From: an uncultured delta proteobacterium
GTDB taxonomy: Bacteria; Desulfobacterota; Syntrophia; Syntrophales; UBA2185
Assembly: GCA_963695875.1 (NCBI GenBank)
Contig: CAVOID010000009.1
Span: forward strand, 187,568-251,567
Reading direction: 5' to 3'
Length of the DNA: 64,000 bases
Positions 3,661 to 31,126 of this stretch are shown one piece after another. The notes under the pieces are model-generated. The model saw only the letters and a program-made list of their open reading frames with translations. It was not told the origin of the DNA and did no database searches. Position 1 is the stretch's first letter; each line of letters begins with the position of its first letter. The position numbers and the translations under genes are program-made.

Positions 3661-3773
3661 TTGAAGCTATCCGCAGTAAACTGCGGAGAATCTTCGATCC
3701 ACAAGGAATAATAATGTCTCCCCATTCGCTCGCTTGCCCCGCAGCAAGCTACAGGAATGCGCTCGCTGCCGGA
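3661..3773 (-). mobile_element. PATE-like non-autonomous IS200/IS605 derivative, copy 1 (113 bp)
   Basis: Near-identical to copies at 12810, 17849 and 24867; two subterminal hairpins; ends in TCAA; TGAA target at 3774-3777 (minus strand). Confidence 0.8.
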
Positions 3774-4510
3774 TTCAATCCTAATATCTTTTTCAATCTC
3801 GCCGCATTTTTCGGGGCATACCCGCCGAAATCGTTGTCAAAATAAACGTAAGTATCTCTGTTCCATACCAATATTTTCCGGGCCCATGTCCGTAGTTCTT
3901 CATCCGTATAGTCCGATGCATAGAGTTTTCTGGACCCGTGAAGACGGATGTAGATAAAGTCAGCCGTGACCGTTTCGCTATAGGGATAACGACCGGCGGT
4001 ATCTGATATGCAGAAGGCAATCCGATGTTTCTCCAGCTTTGCAAGAACGATTTCTTCCAGCCAGCTCTTATGGCGTACCTCAAGCGTGCAGCGATGACGG
4101 TACTTTTCCAGACTTGTGCAAAATTCTTCAAAAACACCTTCATTAAAGGCAAGGCCCGGCGGCAATTGAAAAAGGACAGGCCCAAGTTTTTCTTTCAGTA
4201 TCCCGGCAGCACTGAAAAATCGCTCCAGGGATTCACCGGTATCCTTTAAACGCTTGATATGTGTGATATACCGGCTCGCCTTGACAGCCCACAAAAACCC
4301 TTCCGGCGTTTTTCGTCTCCAGTTTTCTAAAGTTTCCGGCCTGGGCTGCCGATAAAAGGTTGTATTTACTTCGACAGTTGTGAAGTTCCGGGCATAGTAC
4401 TGAAGCCATTTGGATATCGGGCACCCATGGGGATAGAAAGCATCCCTCCAGTGAACATAATTCCAGCCCGATGTCCCGATATAAATATTGGAATTCATTT
4501 TCTTTGACAT
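3749..4510 (-). CDS. DUF72 domain protein
   Basis: IYIGTSGWNY, VEVNTTFY, KASRYITH, LFQLPP, YIRLHG, YVYFDND motifs; last codons and stop lie inside the PATE. Confidence 0.92.
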   Translation of the reverse strand: MSKKMNSNIYIGTSGWNYVHWRDAFYPHGCPISKWLQYYARNFTTVEVNTTFYRQPRPETLENWRRKTPEGFLWAVKASRYITHIKRLKDTGESLERFFSAAGILKEKLGPVLFQLPPGLAFNEGVFEEFCTSLEKYRHRCTLEVRHKSWLEEIVLAKLEKHRIAFCISDTAGRYPYSETVTADFIYIRLHGSRKLYASDYTDEELRTWARKILVWNRDTYVYFDNDFGGYAPKNAARLKKILGLNPAASAFL

Positions 4511-4630
4511 AAACCCATATTTACCCTATACTCGGAAAAAATATCGTAATATACGCCAGACACAGATTTAACATCTGTGAAATATTTGTAAAATTAGAAA
4601 AAGTACTACACTGAAAGGAGACCGAGGATA

Positions 4631-4975
4631 ATGAGAAGACTTTTTTCATGTTTCATTTTGATTTTTCTGCTTGCCACTTTCGGTTGTGCTGCAAAGCAAT
4701 CTTACTATTATGATGTAAAGATGCCAGGTGTCGAGGAAGCAATAAATTATAACTCTAATGGAATAGACCTCGCCTCGCAAGACATGCATAAAGAAGCGAT
4801 CAAGGAATTTAAAAAAGCGGTGGCACTTGATCCATTTTATTCAGAGGCATTCCTCAACATGAGCAAATCTTACTATGCCATAGATAACATTGAGTTCGCT
4901 CATTTTTACAATATTAAGTATCACGAGACCGATCAATACAGAGATTATACCTATAGATATCGGTTAGACTATTAG
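4631..4975 (+). CDS. Small TPR-containing lipoprotein
   Basis: Lipobox TFGC after a hydrophobic stretch; TPR pattern EAIKEFKKAVALDPFYSEAFLN; RBS GAGG. Confidence 0.75.
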   Translation: MRRLFSCFILIFLLATFGCAAKQSYYYDVKMPGVEEAINYNSNGIDLASQDMHKEAIKEFKKAVALDPFYSEAFLNMSKSYYAIDNIEFAHFYNIKYHETDQYRDYTYRYRLDY

Positions 4976-5540
4976 AGGGAAACTGATAGAGATAAATCGG
5001 ATCTCCGTGTAGAGAGGATTCGGGATAAAGTACTTCTGAATGCCTCCAGCCTGGAATGGGGAAGTTGCAGGAAATAACGCGGGTTCCCGGACGAAGCTCT
5101 GCTTCTAGCTTTTGAGCAAGCTTCCCCATGACGTCGGGAAAGAGGTAACAGAATACCACATCAGCATCCCGGATATTTACATTCCAGAAATTACTCAACC
5201 TCACCTCAATCCCTTCCATCCAAAGTGTACGGATACGCGCCAGGATGTAGGCCAGAGGGTTAACCTCAAACCCCAGTGCCCTGACACCGTATCGCCTCTT
5301 TGCTTCCCGGAGAACCCTTCCGTCCCCACAACCAATGTCAACGAGAAGATCGCCTATTTTCATCGGTACATGATCAAGGGATGTTCTCACCCGGACACGC
5401 GCGGACGGGTGGAACATGGCACCCTGAGTAATCGGAAACACAGTAACAATAGAAAAAGCAAGTAGTAATTTGAGGGCAAAGAGACCCCCTATTACAATGA
5501 AAGCTGCGATTATCCAGGATGGCATATCCCTTAATCCCAC
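4914..5540 (-). CDS. Membrane-anchored class I SAM-dependent methyltransferase
   Basis: N-terminal TM helix; DIGCGDGR motif I, GFEVNP, DVVFCYL, RVISCNF; 62 bp convergent overlap with the TPR gene. Confidence 0.85.
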   Translation of the reverse strand: MGLRDMPSWIIAAFIVIGGLFALKLLLAFSIVTVFPITQGAMFHPSARVRVRTSLDHVPMKIGDLLVDIGCGDGRVLREAKRRYGVRALGFEVNPLAYILARIRTLWMEGIEVRLSNFWNVNIRDADVVFCYLFPDVMGKLAQKLEAELRPGTRVISCNFPIPGWRHSEVLYPESSLHGDPIYLYQFPSNSLTDIYRYNLCIDRSRDT

Positions 5541-5565
5541 ATCTCTCTTATTCGGATATTGTCCT

Positions 5566-6243
5566 TTATGATTGTCCTTCAGACGTCAATTGTACGAAAC
5601 TTCCGGGATACGCTTTAAGTACATTTTTTTCCTTCATGTAAGTGGAAGCTTCGTCAATATTCGCAAAATGACCGAGTAAAATTCTATACCATACACCCCG
5701 CCCCTGAATATGGACTCTTTCCATGTGAACATCGGGCTGTCTTTTTCTCAGATCTGTTACAAACTCCGTTGCACCATTTTTATCGTTCTCAGGATAAGCT
5801 CTAATCTGTATAGAGTATTTCTTCTTATTTGAGGTTTTTGATGAATCACCCTTGGATATAATTTCAGTTTGACCTTTCAGTTTTGTATCTTCTATCGGTG
5901 GGACTAAAACTGATTTACCGGTCGGACTGTTAATCCTTTGCGGATAAATCCTTCCCCCAAGATTGGTGGCATCATAATGTTGAATAGTTGGCCAGATAAA
6001 AACTGCCGTAAGAATGAACAGAAGAACGGATAAAACCACCAACGCGGCGATAAATGAAAAACGAAGATTTCGCTTTTTCTTCTCCTGTGATGGTGGTTTC
6101 TCTGGTGGACATGGAAGCGTCGCCCCAGCAAGCGTCTCTGACTCTTCTATACGAGGAAACAAGCTTTTTCCACTTGCCACCTCGTGATATAGAGCTTCCA
6201 ATTCCTGCTCAAGCTCACTTTCTTCCAGGCTTTCTTGTCCCAT
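5566..6243 (-). CDS. Bitopic SPOR-domain protein
   Basis: Single TM segment; C-terminal YSIQIRAY...GVWYRILLGHF SPOR pattern. Confidence 0.8.
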   Translation of the reverse strand: MGQESLEESELEQELEALYHEVASGKSLFPRIEESETLAGATLPCPPEKPPSQEKKKRNLRFSFIAALVVLSVLLFILTAVFIWPTIQHYDATNLGGRIYPQRINSPTGKSVLVPPIEDTKLKGQTEIISKGDSSKTSNKKKYSIQIRAYPENDKNGATEFVTDLRKRQPDVHMERVHIQGRGVWYRILLGHFANIDEASTYMKEKNVLKAYPGSFVQLTSEGQS

Positions 6244-6276
6244 AACATGCTTGTTCTCGTCGACTAGCCGATAAAA

Positions 6277-6927
6277 TTAACTTCCAATGCCGAATCGCTT
6301 GATATAACCGTTGACAACGATGCTTTCATCGACCTGGAGACACCGGGCATACGATTTTAGGAAACCCTTTAAGTATACCATGGGCAGAAAGAGGTCGAAT
6401 TTATCTTCTTCGATAGCTTTAAGGATGCCAATCCTCACATTTGTAACTTCGGCAATTTTTTCAAGAGTAACTTCCAGGGCTGTTCTTATTTTCCTTAAAT
6501 CCTCTCCAGTCAGGACATCCTGAGTGAGGATCCCCTGGATCAACGAATTTTGTGAGACCCGGTTTTTCAAATCCTCCGGCCGGTTGTCCGGCCCTAACAT
6601 AACCGGATGGTTGTTCTTAAAATCGTATATTGAAATCGGTTCCTTCGCTTTGTTACTATATTGCCGGCCTTTCTCCAATACACCGAGCTCAATCAGTTTT
6701 TGATCGTATTCGGATCTCGATTCAGGGTTTATCAGGGTAAGGTAAGCCTCCTCCAGGCAGGAAATAATCTCCTTTCTCTCTTCACTGGAAAAGAATGAAT
6801 AACTTGCCATTGACCCATCCTTATAAAGCTCAAATGCTTTTTTATAAGCCCGGCCGATCTCTAATGGTGACGCATCAGGAGAAAGCTCCAGCAGCTCATA
6901 GTTGTTCTGCTCCCGGAATGGCTTCAT
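6277..6927 (-). CDS. DnaJ-like domain plus RodZ-type HTH protein
   Basis: NYELLELSPDAS..EI..AYKK and EAY.TL.NPESRSEYD (J-like, no HPD); LRKIR...TLEKIAEVT...VYLKGFLKSYA HTH. Confidence 0.82.
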   Translation of the reverse strand: MKPFREQNNYELLELSPDASPLEIGRAYKKAFELYKDGSMASYSFFSSEERKEIISCLEEAYLTLINPESRSEYDQKLIELGVLEKGRQYSNKAKEPISIYDFKNNHPVMLGPDNRPEDLKNRVSQNSLIQGILTQDVLTGEDLRKIRTALEVTLEKIAEVTNVRIGILKAIEEDKFDLFLPMVYLKGFLKSYARCLQVDESIVVNGYIKRFGIGS

Positions 6928-6959
6928 GGGGCTTTATTTTATCCTTTATGAAAATATGA

Positions 6960-7898
6960 TCAATGGTAGTTCGAAAAAAGCGATTTCTTTTCCTTTATTA
7001 TTGACTGCATGTTTTTGGAACATTCCCTGAGATCAAGGGCGGTCTGGGTATAGGGATAAAGATCAAGAAAGGGCATCTTTTTGCAGATTGAATTGTGAAC
7101 TCTATCATCAAAGCTTATACTTCCGAGAAAATGCATCTTCAAGGAAAGATGCCTTTCTATAATTTTGCAAATAAATACGCCGGTATTAGGATTATCCTGT
7201 TTTCTCAGTTGATTTAGAACCAACTTGAAATGGAATTCTTGAAGAGCCTTCTCAAGCTTCTCCCCTTTTTCCGGATCTAATTCTTTCATAATATTAAGAA
7301 GGATTTCCGGATTGTTTATGGTAGCCCTCCCGTTTCTCCTTTCAGCTTCATCAGCCAATGCCTTGTAATTATAAACATTGAGCACCTGACGAATCTTTCG
7401 GATATAGACGGAACGGATGAGACGGTAAATATTTTCTACAGAAGTCGGCTCAGGTGTAGTTACTAAAATACCTGAATTTGAAATCATTAAGAAATCAATT
7501 GTATTAAAAGATGTTCCCGCGCCCAGATCCAAGAGAATATACTCATAAGGAAGCTTGGAGATATGTCTCAACAGTTTCATTTTTTGTTCATGGGCAAGAC
7601 TGGTTATATCCAGATTATTCATCGCACTGCTGATGAAATAGAGTTCGGGAACGGACGTGGGTACAACCGTTTCTTCAAGAGAGCTCACTTTTTTATTGAT
7701 GAAATCTGAAATGCTTTTTTCAGGATGTGGAATGCCGAGGATGGTGTGTAAATTCGCTGCACCAAAGTCAATGTCGATAAGAAGTGTCCTGTACCCCTCT
7801 TTCGCAAGCAGAATTCCGAGGCTACCGGTAACAAAACTCTTACCGGATCCACCCTTTCCACCCCCAATGGGACATATATGCGTCACAGGGTTTGTCAA
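6960..7898 (-). CDS. MinD/FlhG (ParA-family) ATPase
   Basis: Deviant Walker A GKGGSGKS, DIDFGAANLH, LDLGAG, TPEPTS. Confidence 0.88.
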   Translation of the reverse strand: MTNPVTHICPIGGGKGGSGKSFVTGSLGILLAKEGYRTLLIDIDFGAANLHTILGIPHPEKSISDFINKKVSSLEETVVPTSVPELYFISSAMNNLDITSLAHEQKMKLLRHISKLPYEYILLDLGAGTSFNTIDFLMISNSGILVTTPEPTSVENIYRLIRSVYIRKIRQVLNVYNYKALADEAERRNGRATINNPEILLNIMKELDPEKGEKLEKALQEFHFKLVLNQLRKQDNPNTGVFICKIIERHLSLKMHFLGSISFDDRVHNSICKKMPFLDLYPYTQTALDLRECSKNMQSIIKEKKSLFSNYH

Positions 7899-8098
7899 AG
7901 CTCGAATCTACGTAACCATTAAAATTAAGATTAGAAAACCAGTTTCTCCCGATCCTATGGTTTTACATGCCTTCTATGTTTGCCGCCTTATATCCTGACG
8001 GTCTCGCAAATATTTAAACCAACGCCAGGTAGTACTGCCAACATAGATAATCACTTTGTCGAATCTTTCACCCTCTTCATATCATAATTATTGAGGGA

Positions 8099-8134
8099 AT
8101 ATCCATTAATTATTAGTGTTTTAAATGTTGCATA
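8099..8134. promoter_or_regulatory. Bipartite motif ATATCCATTAATTATTA-N12-TTGCATA, copy 1
   Basis: Exact 17 bp + 7 bp match with identical spacing to 8644-8679. Confidence 0.55.
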
Positions 8135-8243
8135 CTACAATGTAAAAGACATGATCGGATGCATGCATTTCAGGAATAACAGGATCTCAGTTGAGAGAAG
8201 TATTCCTTAATGTATTCTTTCACCCGGCAGAGAGTTTGAAAAT

Positions 8244-8477
8244 CTAATATTTAAGCTGCTTCAGCTTAGCAAGCATGGTTTTTTTTGTCTTTACAGCTTT
8301 TATTCCTGCTGCAGCCTTTTCATCATTCAAGCCTGTGCTAAGCCAGCTGTAAAAGTCGTTTTTGTCCTTATTACAGTGATACTTGAATGTTTCTTCGTCA
8401 AGGGTCTCAAGAACTTTAATCAATGTCTTAATAGAGTCAGCAGTCTGGCCGTTATGAAAATAGAATACCGACGTCAT
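8244..8477 (-). CDS. Small DUF5752-like protein
   Basis: FYFHNG...L..LDEETFKYH..NDFYSWL pattern; strong RBS AGGAGG. Confidence 0.7.
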   Translation of the reverse strand: MTSVFYFHNGQTADSIKTLIKVLETLDEETFKYHCNKDKNDFYSWLSTGLNDEKAAAGIKAVKTKKTMLAKLKQLKY

Positions 8478-8643
8478 AAGTTAACCTCCTATCTCTCTTA
8501 ACACTGCAAATTGAAATTTGCTTTCCCGATTTGCCGATTCGGTTCCCTGGCAGTGCCACAATCATTTCAACTACGTATTCGCTGGTTCTGTGGTCTTAAA
8601 TAACGATTTCTTTACCATGTTACATATCACAACTATTAATGAC

Positions 8644-8679
8644 ATATCCATTAATTATTACGATTAGGACGCTTGCATA
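8644..8679. promoter_or_regulatory. Bipartite motif ATATCCATTAATTATTA-N12-TTGCATA, copy 2
   Basis: Repeat of 8099-8134. Confidence 0.55.
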
Positions 8680-8845
8680 TTAATCCGAATTGAAGTTTTC
8701 CTTTTTATTTAATCAGTATACACAAAATAATTCCTTTCCTTGTGATCCCCATTACAGTTTTATTTTCTTTATATGCCGATACTATCAGCAAGTCATCGGA
8801 GTTCATATTCAGAATTTCACCCTTGGGAAGTCACATATAAAAGTT

Positions 8846-8872
8846 TAAGGAAGTTTATTAACTTGCCGAATA
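8846..8872 (+). promoter_or_regulatory. Possible sigma28/FliA-type promoter upstream of the M23 operon
   Basis: TAAG-N15-GCCGAATA versus consensus TAAA-N15-GCCGATAA. Confidence 0.3.
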
Positions 8873-9100
8873 TATAAACAGTTGCTGATCAAAAAAATTT
8901 CAGCAGATGACTGGTACATGGGCAATATGTTGATTTCTCTCATAAAATTAATTTTGATCTCAGAGAATGTCCACAAGTTATTGCAATGCACAACAGAAGG
9001 AACATTATTTGCAAAATATTCGAAATGGAGAATGGAACCAAGTGAGGCGGTGCCCTCATAGACTCCGCTTCAGAAAGAATATTTCAAATTAATTTGAAGG

Positions 9101-9958
9101 ATGGCCTTTATGCCACATTACAGAAAATTCAAAATGTTCTTCAGAAAGGCACTTATTCCCGTTACCATCATGTTTGTCCCCCATGATAATTCCCGTAGAT
9201 CTTTGAATTTGAATGTCCCTGCCATCGGTATATTTCTATCAGCCATTTGCAGTGTAATCGGTGCAGTTTATCTCCTATCCATGCTCCCTGATGCCATCAA
9301 ATATCAGGACATGGAAAAACAACTCCTTGATTATTCGAAAAAGGTCGTCGACTTCAAGGCCACACTAGTATCTTTGAAAAAAGCAGAGAAGGATCTCCAT
9401 CAACTGATCTCCCTGGGTTCCAGAGAAAGGATCTTTGAAAAGGTCGACACGTCGGACATGGGGTCATTCGACATCGATCAGGTGCAGGAGCAGATCGAAT
9501 CTTCCATGAAGACCGTCGGCGCCATCAAAGACTATCTGCGATCGCAAAAGGATCTTTATCTTGCCACCCCAACGGGCTTCCCTGTTCAGGGGCCAATCTC
9601 ATCTCCCTTCGGCAAGAGAGTCCATCCGGTTTCGGGACATTCCGAGTTTCACCGGGGTCTTGATATTTCCGCAGATGCCGGCACTCCCATCAGGACAACG
9701 GCGGACGGGGTTGTCGTCTTTTCCGGTTGGAACGGAGGCGGAGGTAATATTGTTGTGATCGCCCACGGTCACGGTTTTTCCACCTATTATGCCCACAATC
9801 GGAAGAATACTGTACAGGTGGGGCAAAGCGTCAAACGGGGAGATATCATCGGATACGTTGGTTCCACCGGTTCCACTACGGGAAGCCATGTCCATTATGC
9901 GGTATGGCTCAACGGTAAATGTAAAAATCCGATTAACTATACAGAGGGCAGATCCTGA
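9101..9958 (+). CDS. M23 family metallopeptidase
   Basis: TM + coiled coil; ISSPFGKR.HP, HRGLD, YAH, GSTGSTTGSHVHY. Confidence 0.92.
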   Translation: MAFMPHYRKFKMFFRKALIPVTIMFVPHDNSRRSLNLNVPAIGIFLSAICSVIGAVYLLSMLPDAIKYQDMEKQLLDYSKKVVDFKATLVSLKKAEKDLHQLISLGSRERIFEKVDTSDMGSFDIDQVQEQIESSMKTVGAIKDYLRSQKDLYLATPTGFPVQGPISSPFGKRVHPVSGHSEFHRGLDISADAGTPIRTTADGVVVFSGWNGGGGNIVVIAHGHGFSTYYAHNRKNTVQVGQSVKRGDIIGYVGSTGSTTGSHVHYAVWLNGKCKNPINYTEGRS

Positions 9959-10833
9959 TGCTCAATAGGAAGTCGGATAAAATGATCAATAGATGCACAA
10001 CAAAAGTCTTATGTGTCATTCTGCTCTCCATTGTATTGCTTACACCGGTGAGTGCAGAAGAAAAGAACTACCAGAATAATGCCTCGATGCAGGTTCCAAT
10101 TCTTTTGTACCATCGTTTCGGTCCGGTGGCTGCTGATGTCATGACCGTAACGACGCCGGTCTTTATGTCCCACCTCGAATACCTGAGGGCCAACGGCTAT
10201 TCGGTAATACCCCTAAGGCAGCTTGTTGACTATTATCTTGGAAAGGGCCCGCCTCCCCCGCCCAGGTCCGTCGTTATTACCGCCGATGATGGGCATAAAT
10301 CGGTCTATACCGACATGCTCCCGCTGGTAAAGAAATACCACATCCCGGTAACCATATTCATTTATCCATCTGCGATATCAAATGCTTCCTATGCCATGAC
10401 ATGGGATCAGATCAGAGAACTCAAAAAAACCGGCTTCTTCGACATTCAGTCCCACACATACTGGCACCCCAACTTCAAGAAAGAACGTGAGAGATTGAGC
10501 GCCTCAGCATACGAGAAATTCGTCGACATGCAGATGAGGAAGTCAAGAGCAAAGCTGGAGAAGGAATTTGACACTAAAATAGACATGCTTGCATGGCCTT
10601 TCGGCATTCATGATGATTTTCTTATCACAAAAGCCTCAGAAGCAGGATATGTGGGCACTTTTACTATTGATGGCCACAGTGCCAATGCTACCGATAAAGC
10701 AATGAAACTCCCCCGCCATTTATTGACAAATGCCAACAGGGGCAAGGCATTTGAATGGATATTTACAAATCCATCATATCAAAAGATGTTGTTAAGTAAG
10801 ATGACATCTGGAAACAAGGGTAAAAAGGAATGA
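9958..10833 (+). CDS. Polysaccharide deacetylase (NodB/PgaB-like)
   Basis: VPILLYHRF, ITADDG, IQSHTYWH, AWPFG; signal peptide. Confidence 0.9.
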   Translation: MLNRKSDKMINRCTTKVLCVILLSIVLLTPVSAEEKNYQNNASMQVPILLYHRFGPVAADVMTVTTPVFMSHLEYLRANGYSVIPLRQLVDYYLGKGPPPPPRSVVITADDGHKSVYTDMLPLVKKYHIPVTIFIYPSAISNASYAMTWDQIRELKKTGFFDIQSHTYWHPNFKKERERLSASAYEKFVDMQMRKSRAKLEKEFDTKIDMLAWPFGIHDDFLITKASEAGYVGTFTIDGHSANATDKAMKLPRHLLTNANRGKAFEWIFTNPSYQKMLLSKMTSGNKGKKE

Positions 10834-12162: not shown

Positions 12163-12190
12163 CACGGAAACGACGCTCAGAACGGGCTTA

Positions 12191-12565: not shown

Positions 12566-12762
12566 CGTCTAATCTCCTTTCATTACAATACGAAGGTTGT
12601 TATGGAGACACCACTGCAGTTATACAGGTTTTTCTAACTTGGCATGGCGTTTCATAAATACCATATTACGATAGCACAAAAAGCGATTTATTCAAATGAG
12701 AGTGTTTGATATTGTGAGTGATATCTGGACAAAAGCATGCAATATTTCTCCACATAAAGGGC

Positions 12763-12791: not shown

Positions 12792-12809
12792 GCGCGTCGA
12801 CCGATTGAA

Positions 12810-12922
12810 TCCGGCAGCGAGCACATTCCCCGTAGCTTGCTGCGGGGTAAGCGAGCGAATGGGGAACATTATTATTCCTTGTGGATCGGAGATTCTCCGC
12901 AGTTTACTGCGGAGAGTTTCAA
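12810..12922 (+). mobile_element. PATE-like IS200/IS605 derivative, copy 2 (113 bp)
   Basis: TGAA at 12806-12809; CATT + hairpin CCCCGTAGCttGCTGCGGGG; GATT + hairpin CTCCGCAGtttaCTGCGGAG; ends TCAA. Confidence 0.82.
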
Positions 12923-12948
12923 TAAAAAAAAGAATTGGCAATACTCGA

Positions 12949-17848: not shown

Positions 17849-17960
17849 TTGAAGCTCTCCGCAGTAACTGCGGAGAATCTTCGATCCACAAGGAATAATA
17901 ATGTTCCCCATTCACTCGCTTACCCCACAGCAAGCGAAGGTGTTTGCGCTCGCTGCCGGC
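17849..17960 (-). mobile_element. PATE-like IS200/IS605 derivative, copy 3 (112 bp)
   Basis: Same sequence family, left hairpin partly decayed; TGAA target 17961-17964 contains the perR stop codon. Confidence 0.78.
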
Positions 17961-17961
17961 T

Positions 17962-18366
17962 TCAAGTATGTTTTCCCTTTTTGCACTTCGGGCAAATTCC
18001 ATAGAAATCGACATGGTTTCCAATTATCTCGTAATCACAGCTTTCGCCTTCCTGCAAATCGAGCAAGAAATTACGATGAACGTCAATAATTGCTTTACAA
18101 TTAACACATATCAAGTGGTGATGAGGTTTCACATTTGGATCAAAGCGTTTCTTCCCGGTATCAATGGAAAGCTCAAGAACCTGACCTTTTGCTCTCAACT
18201 TTTCCATAGTGTTATATACCGTCGCGAAAGACATCATCGGGTATTTTTTAGATACCACCTTGTATATGTCAGCCGCTGACGGATGAGATTTATTCCCCTC
18301 CAGGTATTCAAGAATTGCAAGCCTCTGCGGGGTCAGTTTTATAGAGTTTTTCTTTTTTTTAAACAT
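17962..18366 (-). CDS. perR: Fur-family peroxide stress regulator
   Basis: LTPQRLAIL, HPSA, ATVYN, RFD, HHHLICxxC..IIDV, CxxC; directly upstream of rbr. Confidence 0.82.
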   Translation of the reverse strand: MFKKKKNSIKLTPQRLAILEYLEGNKSHPSAADIYKVVSKKYPMMSFATVYNTMEKLRAKGQVLELSIDTGKKRFDPNVKPHHHLICVNCKAIIDVHRNFLLDLQEGESCDYEIIGNHVDFYGICPKCKKGKHT

Positions 18367-22526: not shown

Positions 22527-22765
22527 CCCCCGGCAACAGGAGGAAAAACGCCCACTCTGTCCCCATCTCTCAACACTTCATCACCCGTCGCATGCAGGCC
22601 GTTCAAAAAAATCATTTTGACTTTATCAACTGGGAGTTCCAGACCTTTAAGAAGTCTCATGATCGTGGTCCCTTCAGCCGCCTCCATTATTTGACGGCTA
22701 TGGCTGCCTGTCTTATCCGGTGCATATTGTGCAAGGGAAGCAAATAAACTTAATTCAATTTTCAT
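22523..22765 (-). CDS. MoaD/ThiS family sulfur carrier
   Basis: 80 aa beta-grasp pattern ending VFPPVAGG. Confidence 0.9.
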   Translation of the reverse strand: MKIELSLFASLAQYAPDKTGSHSRQIMEAAEGTTIMRLLKGLELPVDKVKMIFLNGLHATGDEVLRDGDRVGVFPPVAGG

Positions 22766-22803
22766 TGCTTGTCCTATAAAAGTGTTTGAAAATCTACACC
22801 CAA

Positions 22804-22858
22804 CATCATTGCGAGATACTTAGTTCACCCTGAGTAAACCGAAGGGATCGAAATGACA
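22804..22858. repeat. Short degenerate palindromic element
   Basis: ATCATTGCGAG...TCGAAATGACA ends, same family as 17216 and 27697. Confidence 0.45.
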
Positions 22859-23047
22859 GAGTGGAAATCTTCCAATTTCTTCTCATTATAAATCTTCTGA
22901 AGCTTTTCCTCAAATATTTTATCATTTATATTGCCCAATGGACAGGAATGCTTTATGAAATATCCTACATATTAAATCCATAAACCGGGAGAGCCGAAAG
23001 CGAAATGGCAAGAATTGGGTAAGTCGGAACAAAGACAAGAATAGACT

Positions 23048-24325
23048 ATGGAATTCAAATACGGACTGGAAGATAAGCCTCCTCTGGCTGAATCTCTATT
23101 AATGGGGCTTCAATGGTGCGCCCTGCTGGTGCCATTTATGATCATTTTGGGCAAGATTGCCGGTTCACTCCACTTCACCGATCCTGCCGGGCTCACTGTA
23201 TATTTGCAAAAGACAGCCTTCATAATGGCCATATTCCTTCTCCTCGAAATCATGTGGGGTCATAGCTTGCCCCTCGTCATGGGGCCGTCTTCGGTACTTC
23301 TTATCGGTATTATATCCAGCAGCGGCTTCGATATAAATACCATAAACACGGCAGTTGTGAGCTGCGGTTTGATTCTTGCCCTGGCAGGCATTACAGGCAT
23401 TTTCGGATATCTACAGTGGATCTTCACGCCCCGTGTTGTAGCAGTGGTGCTCTTGCTGATTGCCTTTACTCTGACGCCTACCGTCCTGAGGCTGGTAACG
23501 GACTCGCAAGGGATATCACCGCAGGTAAATATGGTTTATGCCTTAATACTTACAGCCGCTATTCTGGTTCTTCACCGCCTCCTCAAGGGGATATGGAAAT
23601 CTATTTTGATCCTGATTTCCATGTTTGCCGGAACTATCATCTATTTTATATTCTTTCCGGGCAACTTTGACATTACTCCGGTCGTGTCATCAAGATTCCT
23701 CTCAACCTTTTTTCAAGATATGATCGGCGGTCTTTCTTTCGACATCGGGCTATTAATCTCTTTCTTCATTTGCTTTGTGGCTTTATCTATTAATGATTTG
23801 GGCTCGATGCAGTCCATAAATGCTTTGGTGAAAACACCAGATATGGACAAGAGGGTTAACCGGGGTATTTTTTTTACGGGCCTCGCCAACGTGGCATCCG
23901 GAATCTTTTGTGTAATCGGGCAGGTCAATTATTCTGTCAGTGTTGGCGTTGTTACGGCTACAGGATGTTTGTCACGATTCACGTTAATACCGGCGGCAGC
24001 TGTTCTTCTGATAATATCCTTTTCGCCCATGATGATAGGTTTTCTTGGGATTGTCCCTCCCGTCGTGATCGGCAGTGTTATGTTCTATACACTTTGCACC
24101 CAGGTGTCTGCAGGCCTGACAGTGGCCTTCGAGGCTTTAGGGCGATTCAACCTTGATGATGGAATGATTATAGGCATGCCTATCCTCATTGCAACCGTGA
24201 TCGCTTTCATGCCTGCTGATTTTTTTCACAACTTTCCCCGGATCATGCAACCCATTGTCGGAAATGGATTTGTCATGGGGGTCGTCATCCTCCTCCTTCT
24301 GGAGCATGGTATATTCAGAAAGTGA
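23048..24325 (+). CDS. NCS2 (uracil/xanthine) permease family transporter
   Basis: YGLEDKPP, GLQW, GHSLPLVMGPS, FTPRV; many TM segments. Confidence 0.88.
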   Translation: MEFKYGLEDKPPLAESLLMGLQWCALLVPFMIILGKIAGSLHFTDPAGLTVYLQKTAFIMAIFLLLEIMWGHSLPLVMGPSSVLLIGIISSSGFDINTINTAVVSCGLILALAGITGIFGYLQWIFTPRVVAVVLLLIAFTLTPTVLRLVTDSQGISPQVNMVYALILTAAILVLHRLLKGIWKSILILISMFAGTIIYFIFFPGNFDITPVVSSRFLSTFFQDMIGGLSFDIGLLISFFICFVALSINDLGSMQSINALVKTPDMDKRVNRGIFFTGLANVASGIFCVIGQVNYSVSVGVVTATGCLSRFTLIPAAAVLLIISFSPMMIGFLGIVPPVVIGSVMFYTLCTQVSAGLTVAFEALGRFNLDDGMIIGMPILIATVIAFMPADFFHNFPRIMQPIVGNGFVMGVVILLLLEHGIFRK

Positions 24326-24390
24326 AAGAACAAAACAGTCCTTCTCCATATGAAGTTGGGCTTATTTAGATAATTGGAAAGGAATTGGAT

Positions 24391-24651
24391 ATGAAATGGT
24401 GCGTTTTTGTTAATAGACGATGTTGCGGAGATGATTGTGCCGGATGGGTAAAAGATAATTGTTTCATCCATTTATTGTTGCCAAATGATTACAGCGATAA
24501 ACAATTACAAACTGAATTCGATTGGTCGAAATATGAATCGTTAAAAGCAGCCGGCCACAATTTGATGGAAAATAGCGACGACCAATTATCCTTTTTAGAT
24601 GAACTTGAAAGGCTGATTGCTCAAAAGAACATCATAAATAAAAAAATGTAA
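24391..24651 (+). CDS. Small hypothetical protein with Cys-rich N-terminus
   Basis: RBS AAGGA; WCVFVNRRCCGDDCAGW..NC. Confidence 0.5.
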   Translation: MKWCVFVNRRCCGDDCAGWVKDNCFIHLLLPNDYSDKQLQTEFDWSKYESLKAAGHNLMENSDDQLSFLDELERLIAQKNIINKKM

Positions 24652-24866
24652 TAGAATGGAGACTATATTATTGAATGCACGTATTTATTACACGAAGGCA
24701 TAAAAAATATCAAACATGGAAAATTATTGAGACTTTAAAATACACGATTTTCGCCCTTTGTTATTGACGATTTTCACTAGCAACTAATATTGAACAATAT
24801 GGAAGGTAAATTTTTTCGATTATCTCCTATGCTGTTCGGTCTTTAATTTCAATGCCTGTACAAAAT

Positions 24867-24979
24867 TTGAAGCTCTCCGCAGTAAACTGCGGAGAATCTT
24901 CGATCCACAAGGAATAATGATATTCCCCATTCGCTCGCTTACCCCGCAGCAAGCTACGGGGAATGCGCTCGCTGCCGGA
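24867..24979 (-). mobile_element. PATE-like IS200/IS605 derivative, copy 4 (113 bp)
   Basis: Both hairpins intact; TGAA target 24980-24983; TCAA end. Confidence 0.82.
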
Positions 24980-25357
24980 TTCAAATGGTAATCAGCACCT
25001 GAAATAAAGATGCCGATTACTTAGATTCCTCCTCTTTTTAAGAAGTGACACTCTAATTGAGTCCACCGATAGAATACCGATGAATGTTCCCGCGGTATAT
25101 CAGCGATCCGACCAGATGTTACGGCGCGCTTTCATCCGTTTCTCACCGGTTTCTCCCCATGACATCGTAGACCATGTCGAAATACAGACTGACGGACATT
25201 CATCTGCAAACGAATTCATAATCAGATATAAATTTATAGATAGTCATCCCATAAATGTTAAAGGAACATTCATAGATATATACATTTAAGAGGGATATCT
25301 GTCCAACAGGTCATCGATTCACGCATCGCACCCGGAATTTTTCGTAATGTCCTATAT

Positions 25358-26703
25358 CTAATTTACACGGAGCAGATATTCCACCACTTTCTCAAGATGA
25401 CCAAGGGTGCTGCATTCACGGGCCACATTACAGTATGGAAGGTATGTCTTCATCTCCGAATCCCCAGATCCCCAGAGAGACGGCGTCTCGGGGTTGAGCC
25501 ATATCAATCGTTTGCACCTCTCAGAAATGACACGGAGCACTTCGGTCCTTGGGTTCCAATAATTGTTACGGGCATCTCCCATGATGATCACCGTCGCTCT
25601 CTTCGTAAGGCAACCGGAATATTGATCCCTGAAATCGAGAAAGGAAACCCCATAATCGGTCCGGTTCATGAGAATCGGAAGATCAGTCCCTGACCGGAGC
25701 CTGGCCAGGGCTTCCTGCAACGAGTATATTTCAAAAAGATAGCTTACTTCAACCAGGTTTGAACAGAATATGAAGGATCGGATCCTGGGAATAAACTCGT
25801 TTAAGCTGTATAAAATGAGGAGAAGAAAACGGACAACATTTGAAACAGAACGACTCACGTCGCATATAGCTATAACTTCCGGCCGATCAATCTTTTTAGA
25901 TTTCCAGCGTGTATCGAATGGGAGTCCGCCATATGTGAGACTCTGCCTTAATGTCTTCTTGAAGTCCAGGTGCCCCCTGCGGGCAGCCTTTTGTCTTCTT
26001 GAATGACGGTCTTTCAACCGCTTGATCATTCTCTGCACAATTTTATGGATACGGGCCAGATCCCGTTCCTCAAGTGATGTGAGGCTTGCTTTTTTTATAT
26101 ATCCCTCGAACTGTTCATCTGACCTTCTTGCAGCGTAAAGTTCGAGCTGCCTCTCGACGAGATTGCTTACCCATTCGATAATATTATCCCGCATGGACTG
26201 CAGGACTCTCAACTGTGCCAATGCTTCCGCTTCTCCATCTTCCGCTAGCCTCCTGATATCCCTGTCAAACCCCTCCATGCCGAGCTCTTGAAAAAGCCTC
26301 TGCATATAGAGGCCTTTCTGCATCGGGTATTGAATGTTGCGTACGTCAGCCCTTCCGGCGGCTTCATTTAATGCCAGGGCGAGACCGCCACCGTCACCTG
26401 CAAGAATCGCCCGCGTCAGGAAAGCCGCTCCCTGGATTGCAGGTGATGTGCTGCTGTTTTCCAACGGAAAATCTATCCTCGGAAATATGATCGATGTCAA
26501 AAAAGCTGCTGAAACAGACCTCAAATATCTTTTTCTCCGGCAGTGACTTGGCGAGAGAGGCAGACAGAAAATCTTCTAACAGCTGCCGGTCTATCGTAGC
26601 CGGAAAGTGCCACTGCCTGCAGTGCATCAATCGTTTCCGCTACGGATATCCTGACACCGCAACGCCGAAGAGCAGTAATAAAATTCTCAAGGGTCCTATC
26701 CAA
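25358..26703 (-). CDS. CoxE-like VWA domain protein; apparent frameshifts near 26588 and ~26470
   Basis: FITALRRCGVRISVAETIDA; LDFKKTLR, CDVSRSV MIDAS, TDYG, GDARNN, WLNPE..WGSGDSEM. Confidence 0.85.
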
Positions 26704-27649
26704 TCAGGGTGCCTCCCGGAGTGCATGCTCCGTTAATGTGTAAAGTTTTTCTTCCGCAACCCGGATGTCATCCTGCGCCTTGAGAAACGTGTTCAATGTC
26801 TCCCTGACCAGTTCCCTGTCCAGGTTTTCGGCATGGAGAATAACCAGTGTTTTCGCCCAGTCTATGGTTTCACTGACGGAGGGAAATTTTTTAATGTCGA
26901 GCTTTCTTACCTGGTGTATGAAGGAAACCAATTGCCCCGTCAGTTTTTCCGATATGCCCGGGACGCGCGTTTTGACAATTTCCCTTTCGAGTTCCTGCTC
27001 GGGAAACGAAATATAAAGATGAAGACAGCGCCTTCTCAGGGCCTCACCGAGTTCCCTCGTGCTGTTACTGGTGAGAAAAACAAAAGGTCTTGATGTGGCC
27101 TCTATTGTGCCGATCTCGGGGATGGAAACCTGGAAGTCGGAGAGAATTTCAAGAAGAAAGGCCTCAAACTCATCATCGGATTTGTCCACTTCATCCACCA
27201 GGAGGACAGCCCCTTCCTTTTCCTGAAGGGCCTTGAGAAGCGGTCTCGGTTCCAGAAACTGGGGAGAAAAAAAGATATCGTCATACGCGTGAAGTTTGTC
27301 GATGGATTCGGCCAGGCTCGTCTCCCCTTCGATGATCTTGTCGAGTTTGTCTTTCAAAAGCTGGGTATAAAGGAGCTGTTTCCCATATTTCCATTCATAA
27401 AGAGCTTTCGACTCGTCGAGCCCCTCATAGCATTGAAGCCGGATCAGGGGAACGCTCATGAAAGCTGCAGGCCGCCTTGGCAAGTTCTGTTTTGCCCACA
27501 CCTGCGGGACCCTCCACGAGTACAGGCTTTCCCAGGTGGTAAGCCAGGTATACTGTATGGGCAATTTGTCTGGTGGCTATGTAGTCCACATCCTTGAGGC
27601 CCAGGCGGACACTCTCTACGGTCGCAAATTTATCAGTCGATATGCTCAT
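26704..27649 (-). CDS. MoxR/CoxD-type AAA+ ATPase; apparent frameshift near 27470
   Basis: EGPAGVGKTELAK, RLQCYEGLD, LVDEVDK, LTSN..REL.EALRRRC. Confidence 0.9.
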
Positions 27650-27696
27650 TGTACCCCTTTCCTATCCTTGCGAAACATTCGCATTGTTACCAGCAG

Positions 27697-27780
27697 GTCA
27701 TCACGAGGAGCGTAAGCAACGCACTGATCTATCTGAATATTAATAAGTCGTTAGATTACTTCGCTCTGCTCGCAATAACA
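27697..27780. repeat. Degenerate palindromic intergenic element
   Basis: GTCATCACGAG...AGATTACTTCG...CTCGCAATAACA. Confidence 0.55.
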
Positions 27781-27791
27781 TAATACAGAAT

Positions 27792-28236
27792 TTATCCTAT
27801 CTCGAACCAGCATCGAATCTTGTGGAAAAAACTTCGAAGGATCTTCTTGAAAGATTCAAGTTCTTCCGCAGTAAACCCGTTCTTGATTTCCTGGTTTACC
27901 TTCCCGACAATCCTTTTCGCCTTGTTCATCTCCTCTATACCCTCCGGACTGACATGCACATGTGAAGCCCTGCGGTCATTGGGACTGGCATTTCTCCGGA
28001 CCAATCCCATTTTTTCGAGGCGGTCCACCAGGCCGGTGATTGTGGAATTGTCTATGGACAATATCTGGCTCAATTCGCTCATGGTCCTGCCGTCCTTTCT
28101 CCGTGAGAAGGAACAGGATGCCCGCCTGGGCCGGCGTCACCTTGACATTTTCCCTGATCATGATATTACTGAGGTGAGTCCGAAGTTTTTGCTGGGCGGT
28201 AAAGATGAGATAAATAAGTCTGTCGTCGGCGGGCAT
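27792..28236 (-). CDS. MarR family regulator; apparent frameshift near 28097
   Basis: VTPAQAGILFLL joined to MSELSQ..IDNSTITGLVDRLEK.GLV.R...DRR. Confidence 0.85.
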
Positions 28237-28272
28237 CTTAATAACCTCAGCGGAATATTTCCGTCTGCTTAT

Positions 28273-28303
28273 TTATTTGGCATACCAAATAATAAATGTC
28301 AAA
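28273..28303 (-). promoter_or_regulatory. Putative MarR operator inside its own promoter
   Basis: Perfect inverted repeat TTATTTGG-cata-CCAAATAA just downstream of a minus-strand TTGACA (28298-28303). Confidence 0.6.
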
Positions 28304-28493
28304 CAGAAATATTTATGAGGATGTGCGCATCAAACGATGGTTTGGATTTTTGAAAAGAAATTCAAAAGATACAAACAGAAAATTGAACCTCAATTTCAGA
28401 AAATCAAGCTGGGTTTAAAATTGTTCGCATGAAGTGTCAGGTTGATAGGATTTAAATACCTTTTATTATAGGTCGATATGGGTGAAAAAGTCG

Positions 28494-30024
28494 TCATATA
28501 TTAAATTTTGGATATAAAATTTTTAGACATTCAGGACATATACCATGACTGAAATCGGCGTCCGAGCGGTCACTTATATAAGTCTCTAATTGTTCCCAGT
28601 AACCCTTATCGTTACGTATCTTCTTGCAGGCAGCACAAATGGGTAAGAGTCCACTCAAAGCCCTGATTCTAGAGAGCGCATCCGTGAGCTCAAGAATTAG
28701 TCTCTCCCTTTCCTCCTCCGCCTGCTTGCGTTCCGATATGTCTTTTGAAGCTACTGTTACGGCTATTGTCGTTATTCGCTTCCTTATCCTTGACAGGACT
28801 GAATGTCCGCAGGAAATACCGGCCGTCTCTTTCACTTCTATATTCATTCTGGATAGATGTGCCGGTTTCAAATACATGTTCCACTTTCTCAATGAATTCC
28901 CTTGTGGACGTTTCGGAATGGAACTCACGATATAGTCTGCCTATGATCCTTTCTAATGGAAGGCCGAACCTCGACAAATGTTTATCGTTCATAAATAGAT
29001 ACCTGTAGCCTCTGTCCACAAGATACATCGAATCTGCGGTAGAAGCCAAAGATCGGTATTTCTCCCCAGATTCCCGCAACGCTTCTTCCGTATGCTTGCG
29101 ATCAGTGATATCCCGGATAGATTCAATAGCACCTACAATATTAGCCCCGCTATCATATAATGGCCTGGCTTTCCCCCAGAGTATGCGCTGTTGATTGTTC
29201 AGGGGTACATCAGCCTCAGTTAAAAGAATATCTCCTTTCTTTTCGATAAATCTGTACTTCTTCTCGATCTTTTCATCAGATATAAATACCAGATCAATCA
29301 GTATCGGTCTCCGCATCCCGTAGAAAGGTATGGCATATTCATAATCGCCTTTTCCTACCATGTCTTCGGCCTTGACTCCTGTCATCTCTTCAATAGCCCG
29401 GTTCCACGTGATTACTTTACCTTCTCGATCAATGGCAAAGGTTGCATCAGGCAGGAAATCAATGATATCGGATAAGCGCTGCTCCGATTCCTTCAGCGCT
29501 TCCTCCGCTCGCTTGCTGTTTGTGATGTCACGTACAATGATGACAATCTGGCTTTCCAAAAGTGGCAATAATCTTGCCTCATAATGGTATTCGTCATTCT
29601 GCTGCGCTATGGAATATTCCATGCTGACAAGGGATCTTGTTTTTTGTGCTTGATCAATTGCCTTTCCAAATTTTTTTCCGACATTTCGAGGGAATATATC
29701 ACCGATCTGTTTTCCAATCACTTTTTCCTCTAATATATGCATATTTATTCCGTTAGATGCTTGATAATCCAGAATGATGCCCTCACTGTCCGTTCGAAAC
29801 AGGAGATCCGGGAAGGCTTGAAACAATGCCCTCATTTCAGAGCTGGCCTGCAGCAATTCTTGTGAGCTGAGATCGAGGGATCTCTCTAATATCTCACGAT
29901 CGGCGTCCATCTGCCAGTAGGCTTCATTGACGGAACTAATCATTTTTTCACATCCACTTGGGACGGCATCCAAACCACCGAAATTACGAATTATTTGACG
30001 TTTCAACAAGCTGTGCAGATCCAT
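28494..30024 (-). CDS. Multi-PAS sensor protein with Cys-rich C-terminal domain; apparent frameshift near 28780
   Basis: Three PAS/PAC units (two ending RDIT, one KDIS); tail GLLPICAACKKIRND.GYW...FSHGICPEC. Confidence 0.82.
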
Positions 30025-30481
30025 GGCTACTCCGTATCTCAACTCTGTTACAATTCTTGAGTCCTTCTGTAAAACAAAGAGAGGTCAGATCTATAACGGC
30101 TGACACATTTTTCTGTGAATTTTTTTTGGATAATATTTTGCTTAGATCGTGTTTGTACATGGGACCATTTCCCAAGACGAAACAGTAGGGGAAAACCCTC
30201 TAAGAAACGGGCTTTCATAGATCAGTTCGAAGTTCATAATTGTAGATATCGGTGTAACACATACATGGTATATTTTATAAATGCAATACTAGAAAAATAC
30301 TTAAAATATACCAGGTAAGAACTCTTATGTATTAACTGGTTGTACTTTTTTTATTTGAATAAGTTTATGAATTACGGAGGGTCAGGTAAACATAAATGTC
30401 CTGTACTCACTCTTTTCTTCGCGCTGTAGTTTCCAGGAATATGTTTCTCCATTTTCAATGATTATAAGATTAGTTGTGGAA

Positions 30482-30512
30482 GTGAAGCTCCCCCCTTAGG
30501 GCGGGGCTTCCT
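30482..30512 (-). mobile_element. Orphan IS200/IS605-type right end
   Basis: Minus strand GAAG-CCCCGCCC-TAA-GGGGGGAG-CT-TCAC: guide, hairpin and TCAC cleavage site. Confidence 0.6.
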
Positions 30513-30559
30513 GAATTTGTGCTGTACGTTATGATAACGCAGAGTAGTATTATCCCAGA

Positions 30560-30672
30560 TTGAAGCTCTCCGCAGTAAACTACAGAGAAACTTCGATCTT
30601 TAGGGAATAGTAGAGTAAATGACTCGAGCGCATATCCCGCAGCTGGCCACGGGGTATGCGCTCGCTATTGGA
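30560..30672 (-). mobile_element. PATE-like IS200/IS605 derivative, diverged copy 5 (113 bp)
   Basis: Same length and ends, diverged interior; TGAA target 30673-30676 contains the Cache gene stop. Confidence 0.7.
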
Positions 30673-30673
30673 T

Positions 30674-31126
30674 TCATACCCACGTTTGGTTTGCTGACGA
30701 AATTTGAATATTATAAGAAATCAAATCCAGCCACTTTTCTATATAGATTCCACCGCAAAAGATCAGGTCATCGACCTTCTCAAAGTATACACGCTTGGGT
30801 TTTGTCTCTTTGGTTACAGGGTTATACCATTTATACTCTACAGTCCCGCTGCCTTTCTCCTCGGCTGAACCGATGATATCCCTGATAAAACTCTTGCCAT
30901 CAGAATCCTTGATGTCGTTGAAGTTCTTTCCTATATATTTTTCATTGACTCCATGAGCCATCATGGTTCCTTTCAGATCCAGCACGAAGACATACATTTC
31001 GTCCTGAACAAAAGGTCCTTTAGGATTTGTGAACTCGGCCAGAGCAATATCTCTGCCGGAATTCTTGTAAAAACTTATTGTCTTGGACACAAACTCTTTC
31101 GCTTCTTTCTTTGATTTTTCCAACAT
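30674..31126 (-). CDS. Single Cache (sCache_2-like) domain protein without signal peptide
   Basis: YVFVLD..G.M.AH...GKN...KDSDGK.FI...G.G.VEYKW.NP...K..Y. Confidence 0.85.
   Translation of the reverse strand: MLEKSKKEAKEFVSKTISFYKNSGRDIALAEFTNPKGPFVQDEMYVFVLDLKGTMMAHGVNEKYIGKNFNDIKDSDGKSFIRDIIGSAEEKGSGTVEYKWYNPVTKETKPKRVYFEKVDDLIFCGGIYIEKWLDLISYNIQISSANQTWV

Follow-up and report, generated by a model that had tools for sequence, protein, structure and literature searches.

A gene-less 113-bp repeat of Syntrophales is very probably an IS200-group element mobilized in trans

Introduction

How is a repeat of only 113 bp, too short to carry a gene, multiplied in a bacterial genome? This question was raised by a 64,000-nucleotide stretch of DNA from an uncultured bacterium of the order Syntrophales (positions 187,568 to 251,567 of contig CAVOID010000009.1, assembly GCA_963695875.1; hereafter the window), where such a repeat occurs five times. 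Insertion sequences of the IS200/IS605 family transpose as single strands, by a "peel and paste" process, and the initial annotation of the window regarded the repeat as a recently mobile, non-autonomous derivative of this family, whose own guide sequences predict its TGAA target. The results presented here support a non-autonomous family moved in trans. The repeat is very probably a palindrome-associated transposable element (PATE), i.e. a gene-less remnant or sibling of an insertion sequence of the IS200 group (IS200/IS605 family) that is moved in trans by an IS200-type TnpA; the likely identity of that transposase is deduced from the ends of the element. To our knowledge, this element family has not been described, and no paper was retrieved by a literature search for Smithella together with IS200. 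Elements of this kind are well known; the family itself is a new member.

Results

Anatomy of the five copies

The five copies lie where the initial annotation had placed them and measure 113, 113, 112, 113 and 113 bp (copies 1 to 5). The active (top) strand is the minus strand for copies 1, 3, 4 and 5 and the plus strand for copy 2. Read on this strand, all five copies are flanked on the 5' side by TGAA (TTGAA in four, ATGAA in one), end in TTCAA at the 3' terminus and contain two 8-bp hairpins; TGAA, TCAA and the two hairpins had been described for them. From 5' to 3', the flanking TGAA, 14 nt and CATT precede a first 8-bp hairpin, and about 43 nt and GATT separate it from a second 8-bp hairpin, which is followed by 4 nt and TCAA. 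Cuts are predicted after TGAA and after TCAA. In copy 4, which was taken as the reference copy, the left part reads TGAA, cut, TCCGGCAGCGAGCG, CATT and the hairpin CCCCGTAG-cttg-CTGCGGGG, and the right part consists of a 43-nt spacer, GATT, the hairpin CTCCGCAG-ttta-CTGCGGAG, AGCT, TCAA and the cut. The tetranucleotides at the 5' foot of the hairpins are the putative guides. The left guide is CATT in copies 1, 2 and 4, as previously noted, CAAA in copy 3 and CATA in copy 5. The right guide is GATT in copies 1 to 4, in agreement with the initial annotation, which passed over the GTTT of copy 5. The element has no coding capacity, and its terminal inverted repeat is limited to the outermost five bases (TTGAA and TTCAA, which are reverse complements). 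The features of the five copies are as follows (window coordinates).

3661..3773, minus strand: copy 1 (113 bp), with a 1-nt deletion in the 5' arm of the left hairpin
3774..3777, minus strand: target TGAA of copy 1 (pentamer TTGAA)
12810..12922, plus strand: copy 2 (113 bp), the sole window copy whose active strand is the plus strand
12806..12809, plus strand: target TGAA of copy 2
12824..12827, plus strand: putative left guide CATT of copy 2
12828..12847, plus strand: left-end hairpin of copy 2 (CCCCGTAG, loop cttg, CTGCGGGG)
12891..12894, plus strand: putative right guide GATT of copy 2
12895..12914, plus strand: right-end hairpin of copy 2 (CTCCGCAG, loop ttta, CTGCGGAG)
12919..12922, plus strand: TCAA at the putative right cleavage site of copy 2, with its end 8 nt past the hairpin foot
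17849..17960, minus strand: copy 3 (112 bp), variant left-end allele with CAAA for CATT and a substituted 5' hairpin arm
17961..17964, minus strand: target TGAA of copy 3
24867..24979, minus strand: copy 4 (113 bp), 97.5% identity to the assembly consensus
24980..24983, minus strand: target TGAA of copy 4
24962..24965, minus strand: putative left guide CATT of copy 4, ending 18 nt past the left cleavage point
24942..24961, minus strand: left-end hairpin of copy 4, 8-bp stem including one G.T pair, loop CTTG
24895..24898, minus strand: putative right guide GATT of copy 4
24875..24894, minus strand: right-end hairpin of copy 4
24867..24870, minus strand: putative right cleavage tetranucleotide TCAA of copy 4
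30560..30672, minus strand: copy 5 (113 bp), the most diverged window copy (76.5% identity to the consensus), guides decayed to CATA and GTTT
30673..30676, minus strand: target TGAA of copy 5 (pentamer ATGAA)

Empty sites and the target tetranucleotide

TGAA and TCAA are near reverse complements, so a description such as "preceded by TGAA, ending in TCAA" fits both strands, and only empty sites decide which of the two is the target. Empty sites were sought in relatives, and three clean empty/filled comparisons were obtained in all. Both flanks of copies 1 and 3 were matched by two congeners, G001 and G002, at 84–89% identity with the element absent, and in these empty sites the flanks were joined via one hexamer, TTGAAT on the active strand (ATTCAA on the plus strand). 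The third comparison was provided by a copy of G001 that is missing at the same place in the assembly studied here and in G002, where the empty sites read TTGAA followed by A and CTGAA followed by T. In the three cases (N)TGAA was kept and the TCAA end was lacking. This indicates that TGAA stays behind, rather than leaving with the element, and that the TCAA end travels with it; hence, TGAA is the target, retained in the empty site, and the TCAA end is part of the element. The empty-site test proposed in the initial annotation could have refuted its reading, and the reading withstood it. For copy 5 the right (target-side) junction was aligned with the congeners and the left side was not alignable, and the intergenic DNA of the congeners at copies 2 and 4 is too diverged for an empty-site comparison.

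The flanks of further copies were analysed in two sets. A search of the assembly (2.86 Mb in 16 contigs, 82.6% complete) with nhmmer, using a profile made from the five window copies, gave 40 matches, 33 of them near full length; the second set was a cross-genome alignment of 87 distinct full copies from many genomes. TGAA was the 5' flank in 35 of the 40 assembly matches, and the remaining five comprised two with CGAA, a fragment, a diverged copy and a deletion derivative whose coordinates gave an artefact. In the 87-copy alignment the 5' flank was TGAA in 72 copies (plus three shifted by one column), CGAA in eight and another sequence in four. The base before TGAA was variable (T in 40, A in 14, G in 11 and C in 7 copies), as expected of flanking DNA. 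At the right end TCAA was present in 74 of the 87 copies, plus four in which it was shifted, and the base after the element was T in 67 and A in 15, which reflects either a further target preference or a one-base ambiguity of the boundary.

The two junctions share AA, usually AAT, and no duplication extends beyond that. The earlier claim that there is no target duplication holds for anything past these shared bases, and a duplication of 2–3 bp (AA or AAT) is formally compatible with the junctions alone. Such a duplication would be made if the repeat were a miniature inverted-repeat transposable element moved by a DDE transposase, and the reverse complementarity of the outermost five bases and the empty sites are also formally compatible with this origin. 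However, no inverted repeat was found past those five bases, in about 20 of the 87 copies the two sides disagree in what would be the third base duplicated, both ends are homologous to IS200 ends in sequence and spacing, and the insertions show an orientation bias (see below). Because terminal inverted repeats are lacking and both ends are homologous to IS200 ends, a 2–3 bp duplication is unlikely, and we consider an origin as a DDE-moved miniature element extremely improbable.

Copy 1 sits between the last sense codons and the stop codon of a DUF72 gene (window 3749–3790, minus strand). The open reading frame ends in GLNPAASAFL and a stop, the final seven codons and the stop being contributed by copy 1. 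In the empty sites of G001 and G002, TAA directly follows TTGAAT at the end of the DUF72 gene, with the reading frame inferred, not translated.

Conservation of the hairpins

Single-strand DNA folds of three copies surpassed those of shuffled sequences in stability, with z-scores from -2.35 to -4.57. In the 87-copy alignment the two-hairpin structure was 95.7% paired, versus 34–59% when the partners were slid by 1–3 columns, and its covariation score was reached by none of 500 shuffles. Both-sided changes were found at six of the eight pairs of the right hairpin, in which 96.5% of cells are paired, and whole-stem variants of this hairpin were represented by CCTCGCGG/CCGCGAGG, CCCTGCAG/CTGCAGGG and CTCCGGAG/CTCCGGAG. 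These variants demonstrate that compensatory changes have occurred in the right hairpin. In addition, G.T pairs on the active strand (A.C on the other) were present in 51 of the 87 copies at one pair of the left hairpin, and in 78 of the 87 at one pair of an alternative left stem (see below). The large number of G.T pairs fits a strand-specific fold.

Guide sequences and the IS608 pairing rule

IS608 of Helicobacter pylori has a size of about 1.8 kb, versus 113 bp for the element, which differs from it in the lack of tnpA and tnpB, in the target (TGAA instead of TTAC) and in its hairpin sequences, which are unrelated. The likeness lies in the organization of the ends. In the part of PMC3201880 dealing with site recognition, IS608 is described as having subterminal hairpins whose sites are recognised by the four bases 5' of each hairpin foot. 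Cleavage at the left end takes place 3' of TTAC, 19 nt 5' of the left hairpin foot, and at the right end the site is TCAA, at a distance of 10 nt on the 3' side of the hairpin foot. Site position 1 pairs with guide position 2 (T-4/A-34), and site position 2 with guide position 1 (C-3/G-35) (PMC3201880). The element likewise has a 4-nt guide 5' of each foot, a left site in the flank (18 nt from the foot, compared with 19 nt in IS608) and a right site inside the element (8 nt, compared with 10 nt), which is TCAA in both. Its right hairpin foot is followed by A and G, as is that of IS608 (PMC3201880).

The pairing rule was scored as site 1 with guide 2, site 2 with guide 1 and site 4 with guide 4. 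Under this rule the left guide CATT calls for TGnA, and the flank has TGAA, 18 nt from the left hairpin foot on its upstream side. The right guide GATT calls for TCnA, which is matched by the TCAA that ends 8 nt past the right hairpin foot. The left guide is CATT in 66 and the right guide GATT in 69 of the 87 aligned copies. The rule as worded in the initial annotation agrees with the portion of PMC3201880 on base recognition and holds in the tnpA-bearing IS200 elements that share the hairpin type (see below). The claim that the guides predict TGAA and TCAA was borne out for the copies with CATT and GATT and failed for the variant left-end allele found in seven of the 40 assembly matches, copy 3 included. 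In a sister lineage of the miniature element, both guides are AATT, the flank is TTTA and the right terminus TTAA. The genome carrying this lineage contains a single full copy accompanied by fragments. One of the fragments, a second right end, fits the rule with the pair AATT-TTAA, another fits it at the left end, and one further hairpin misfits.

The rule in tnpA-bearing IS200 relatives

Some related genomes contain IS200-type genes of about 150 aa, and the ends of these insertion sequences carry the same type of hairpin (CCCCG...CGGGG). In the cases read by eye, the right-end site ended exactly 8 nt past the hairpin foot and matched the guide in all but two, both of which adjoin tnpA genes interrupted by a stop codon. 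The right guide-site pairs of these relatives were AATG-TTAC, GATA-TCAT, GATG-TCAC, CATA-TGAT and AATA-TTAT, and their left-end sites were placed 16–20 nt upstream of the hairpin. One clade, first seen in genome G013 (contig C12, 153-aa TnpA), has a right hairpin that coincides with the left hairpin of the element in 20 of 20 positions, including the CTTG loop.

The rule was scored in the 80 best metagenomic relatives of this clade (loci L213–L292). Sixty of the 80 loci were scorable, i.e. their left end had both the hairpin and the anchor motif, the site being taken as the four bases before the conserved start of the element. The pairing rule was obeyed by 55 of the 60 left ends, whereas 2000 shuffles of the guides among loci gave a mean of 17.4 and a maximum of 31. 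The guide-site classes were AATT-TTAA (23 loci), AGTT-CTAA (19), GATT-TCAA (8), TATT-TAAA (2), CATT-TGAA (2) and AATA-TTAT (1), and the five misfits were single cases. Both clade elements with CATT (L283 and L287) adjoin TGAA. At the right end an automatic hairpin finder recorded a fit in 29 of 53 metagenomic loci; judged by eye, most of the 24 misses appear to be due to 1-nt frame errors of the finder or to 9-nt spacings rather than to genuine exceptions. The target-predicting rule is thus demonstrably in force in this IS200 clade.

The hairpin-sharing relatives examined were tnpA-only. These elements (L083/L183, L184, L186 and L213–L292) resemble the miniature element in the 8-bp G+C-rich stems, the CTTG loop, the right site 8 nt past the foot and the left site 16–19 nt before the foot. 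They differ from it in encoding a TnpA of about 150 aa, in a left spacer that starts with a conserved TCTC and is unrelated to that of the element, and in the right guide/site, which is GATA/TCAT or AATA/TTAT instead of GATT/TCAA; none of them is a simple parent. Judged by sequence and spacing, the element has the design of this IS200 clade.

Copy number and distribution of the family

The nhmmer E-values of the five window copies ranged from 3.5e-39 to 3.2e-33, and the five-copy repeat is far beyond chance. Among the 31 best-scoring of the 40 assembly matches, the identity to the consensus was 76.5–98.3% and the median pairwise identity 89.1%. The copies are unevenly distributed, since five were located in 27 kb of the window versus 0.38 expected from the genome-wide density (Poisson P of about 5e-5, calculated post hoc). 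The G002 contig that is syntenic with window positions 2900–31200 has no copy, and all eight element matches of G002 are on other contigs. This clustering suggests a local burst or local hopping. The initial description of the family as recently mobile holds only relative to the divergence of the congeners, as measured by the 84–89% identity of the flanks, and the range of identity to the consensus given above has to be read with it.

The element was present in 28 of 41 related genomes, including all 21 other sampled genomes of the same family and one genome each from six further families of the order, with up to about 100 first-look candidate copies per genome. An exact 23-mer of the left end retrieved 85 matching stretches from a collection of species-representative genomes. 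The record titles were mostly those of Syntrophales, Smithella, Syntrophaceae or Smithellaceae metagenome-assembled genomes, and a few carried the labels Desulfobacterales, Nitrospirae/Nitrospiria, Ignavibacteria or Bacteroides. At L105, L107, L130 and L159, in records titled Nitrospirae, Bacteroides sp., Ignavibacteria and Nitrospiria, the element was observed in full. The copies in records of other phyla result either from horizontal spread or from contigs that were binned wrongly.

Upkeep of a family across an order, together with compensatory changes in its hairpins, is also what a conserved structured RNA or a regulatory module kept for a host function, whether once mobile or not, would show. 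The persistence of the element in genomes without any Y1 gene (see below) and the position of the five window copies, all intergenic or at gene ends, agree with such a role. Nevertheless, no match to Rfam at the gathering score was obtained anywhere in the window, copies are insertion-polymorphic between congeners, the window copies occur in both orientations relative to the neighbouring genes, and departures from the guide and site consensus were counted in 15–21 of the 87 aligned copies. Compensatory change is, moreover, equally expected of DNA hairpins bound by a transposase. A host-maintained RNA or regulatory module is a very unlikely explanation of the family, and an IS200-type mobile element is preferred.

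Orientation relative to replication

The leading strand, usually G-rich, is identical in sequence to the template of the lagging strand. The top strand of IS200/IS605 elements is excised and inserted, mainly on the lagging-strand template, according to the portion of PMC5027513 on strand preference. The active strand of the element was on the locally G-rich strand in 29, 26 and 28 of the 40 assembly matches at scales of 20, 50 and 100 kb, respectively. The same count was made in other genomes with those rows of the 87-copy alignment whose locus measures at least 4 kb, the window rows being left out: the active strand was on the G-rich strand in 38 of 55 loci (two-sided binomial p 0.006), and in 28 of the 35 with an absolute skew of at least 0.03. 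The bias is consistent with the direction expected for insertion on the lagging-strand template.

Observations that weigh against a canonical IS200 mechanism

Three groups of observations weigh against the conclusion that the family is moved by an IS200-type TnpA through two guided ends. The first concerns the parent element and the transposase. The initial annotation had proposed looking for a tnpA element that shares both ends with the repeat, and this search was negative in all sets of loci. No such element was present among 29 + 14 Y1 loci of relatives (nhmmer and motif scans), in 80 loci around element copies (tblastn with three Y1 proteins), at the 30 loci of the closest TnpA clade among 339 genomes of the order, or in the 80 metagenomic loci of the hairpin-sharing clade. 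The IS200 relatives have only the hairpins in common with the element, and their spacers and right-end sites (TCAT, TTAT) differ. In the 82.6%-complete assembly no IS200-type TnpA was found, the hairpin-sharing TnpA included. The suggestion of a TnpB with a matching transposon-adjacent motif, and of right-end transcripts acting as guide RNAs, received no support, as neither of the two TnpB families tested (PF07282 and PF01385) had a match in the assembly. In addition, G007, a genome in one contig with 11 scored copies of the element, lacks any Y1 match, and the same was found for G002, G016 and G021. Multi-copy insertion sequences are often missing from metagenome assemblies, so the absence of Y1 genes from fragmented genomes is not demonstrated by these searches.

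A second group of observations concerns the left end. In the 87 copies the left hairpin was 94.8% paired, with a both-sided change at one pair only; since the search pattern prescribed the 3' arm in most rows, this count is not a fair measure of covariation in the left hairpin. A longer hairpin can alternatively be formed at the left end, beginning one base into the element. Its pairing (94.5% of cells) equals that of the short hairpin, and none of its pairs changes on both sides. This alternative was not adopted as the transposase-bound hairpin because it would leave no room for the guide. Furthermore, a second left-end allele exists, in which CAAACACCTTCG substitutes for the left guide together with the 5' hairpin arm. 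It was found in seven of the 40 assembly matches (two of them a deletion derivative and a fragment) and in six of the 87 aligned copies, on three backgrounds of central sequence, each of which also exists with the CATT allele. Copy 3, absent from both congeners, carries it at 17923–17946, and it is also present at loci L012, L089, L121, L133 and L139. The flank of the variant is still TGAA, and the IS608 rule would predict TGnT. Either the copies acquired the variant through exchange with other copies once inserted, or they move along a route for which the left guide is dispensable, the variant being a second functional left end.

Two further points refer to covariation and orientation. Single guide mutations occur in individual copies of the 87-copy alignment without matching changes of the site; guide/site covariation within the family proper is thus thin, and unmatched mutations are expected of decay after insertion. 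The orientation bias, finally, is modest and confounded with gene direction.

As a separate observation, three internal-deletion derivatives that keep both termini were noted on contig C11, near 283.4, 313.8 and 231.7 kb. One is a single-hairpin mini-element of about 45 nt, in which the left guide and 5' arm are fused to the right loop and 3' arm, and another lost the left guide and hairpin by a deletion between two AGCGAGCG direct repeats.

The RAYT-like gene of the assembly

The single Y1 gene of the assembly (contig C4, 236 aa) is not of the IS200 type: its protein scored 82.5 bits on the NCBIfam model REP_Tyr_transpos (cut-off 80) and 23.7 bits on the IS200 model (cut-off 55). Repetitive extragenic palindromes (REPs) are short palindromes that flank their REP-associated tyrosine transposase (RAYT, TnpA-REP) gene and have a conserved 5' tetranucleotide. 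An alternative explanation is that the element is a REP- or REPIN-like repeat serviced by this gene and not by an IS200 transposase. REPs and REPINs resemble the element in being intergenic hairpin repeats of high copy number with a link to a Y1 HUH enzyme, the sole Y1 gene found here is RAYT-like, similar genes of about 230 aa are present in several relatives, and a 5'-truncated copy of the element lies about 0.75 kb beyond the stop codon of the gene. In contrast, the gene is bracketed by a perfect 19-bp inverted repeat of its own, unique to these two places in the assembly and without relation to the element, and not by the element itself. The element is asymmetric, with two distinct ends that appear guide-coded, instead of a palindromic unit with a conserved 5' tetranucleotide, and the four element-bearing genomes mentioned above lack any Y1 match. 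At a density of 40 matches per 2.86 Mb, the chance that a copy lies within about 1 kb of a particular gene is, by our own estimate, a few percent, and the truncated copy is most simply a coincidence. Service by the RAYT-like gene is very unlikely, and an IS200-type TnpA acting in trans is maintained as the explanation.

The RAYT-like gene is located at 139.9–140.9 kb of contig C4 (locus L001, 1411–2176). Over the 1.3 kb upstream of the gene the G+C content appears much higher, and long open reading frames are present in several frames; this stretch could be a foreign segment or an assembly chimera.

Other repeats of the window

Two further pairs of direct repeats, unrelated to the element, were observed in the window, at 8078–8137 and 8623–8682 (60 nt, 73% identity) and at 31349–31395 and 31529–31575 (47 nt, 87% identity).

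Discussion

Movement by the IS200 mechanism is what we infer from three lines of evidence, namely the anatomy of the element, the empty sites and the pairing rule that operates throughout the related clade. The most likely transposase is a TnpA from the IS200 clade that shares its right-end hairpin with the left end of the element. By analogy with IS608, a dimer of this Y1 (HUH) TnpA, supplied in trans, would bind both hairpins on single-stranded DNA. The 4-nt guides located 5' of the hairpin feet would pair with the cleavage sites, CATT with the flanking TGAA and GATT with the terminal TCAA. The top strand would then be released in circular form and inserted on the 3' side of another TGAA, mainly in the template of the lagging strand. 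This process would create no duplication, and excision would leave TGAA behind.

PATEs have reportedly been found in haloarchaea, in a paper on Haloquadratum. Those of Halanaerobium hydrogeniformans and Geobacillus stearothermophilus are ends-only derivatives of the IS200/IS605 family, thought to be moved in trans, in the parts of PMC7290912 and PMC10055086 that treat them. As they are presented there, these PATEs have ends in common with an identified resident insertion sequence, and some carry parts of TnpB guide RNAs (PMC7290912, PMC10055086). In the family described here, no resident parent or TnpB was found, yet it is spread over the order at tens of copies per genome. Since neither a resident parent with both ends nor a cognate TnpA was found in the 82.6%-complete assembly, derivation from a known resident insertion sequence cannot be claimed.

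There is a small but appreciable chance that the family does not depend wholly on the canonical two-guide IS200 mechanism. Its upkeep across the order, including four genomes without a Y1 match, and the recurrence of a left-end allele that has no guide leave room for a second way of copying. Candidates for it are one-ended mobilisation by the right end, exchange between copies and use of the alternative long left hairpin. The elements might also be preserved by a role in the host once the transposase has been lost.

The known workings of such elements are unchanged by these findings. In practical terms, the element is best masked or annotated as mobile DNA, and not as a set of unexplained repeats or extensions of open reading frames. 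For the Syntrophales, the family marks tens of insertion-polymorphic sites per genome in metagenome-assembled genomes. It represents a clean, checkable case of DNA-guided target choice in a natural non-autonomous element. The IS200 clade, in turn, forms a natural covariation series, with six left-guide classes, each beside its predicted target, in line with the IS608 rule of PMC3201880, and its loci L213–L292 could serve as a data set on DNA-guided target choice.

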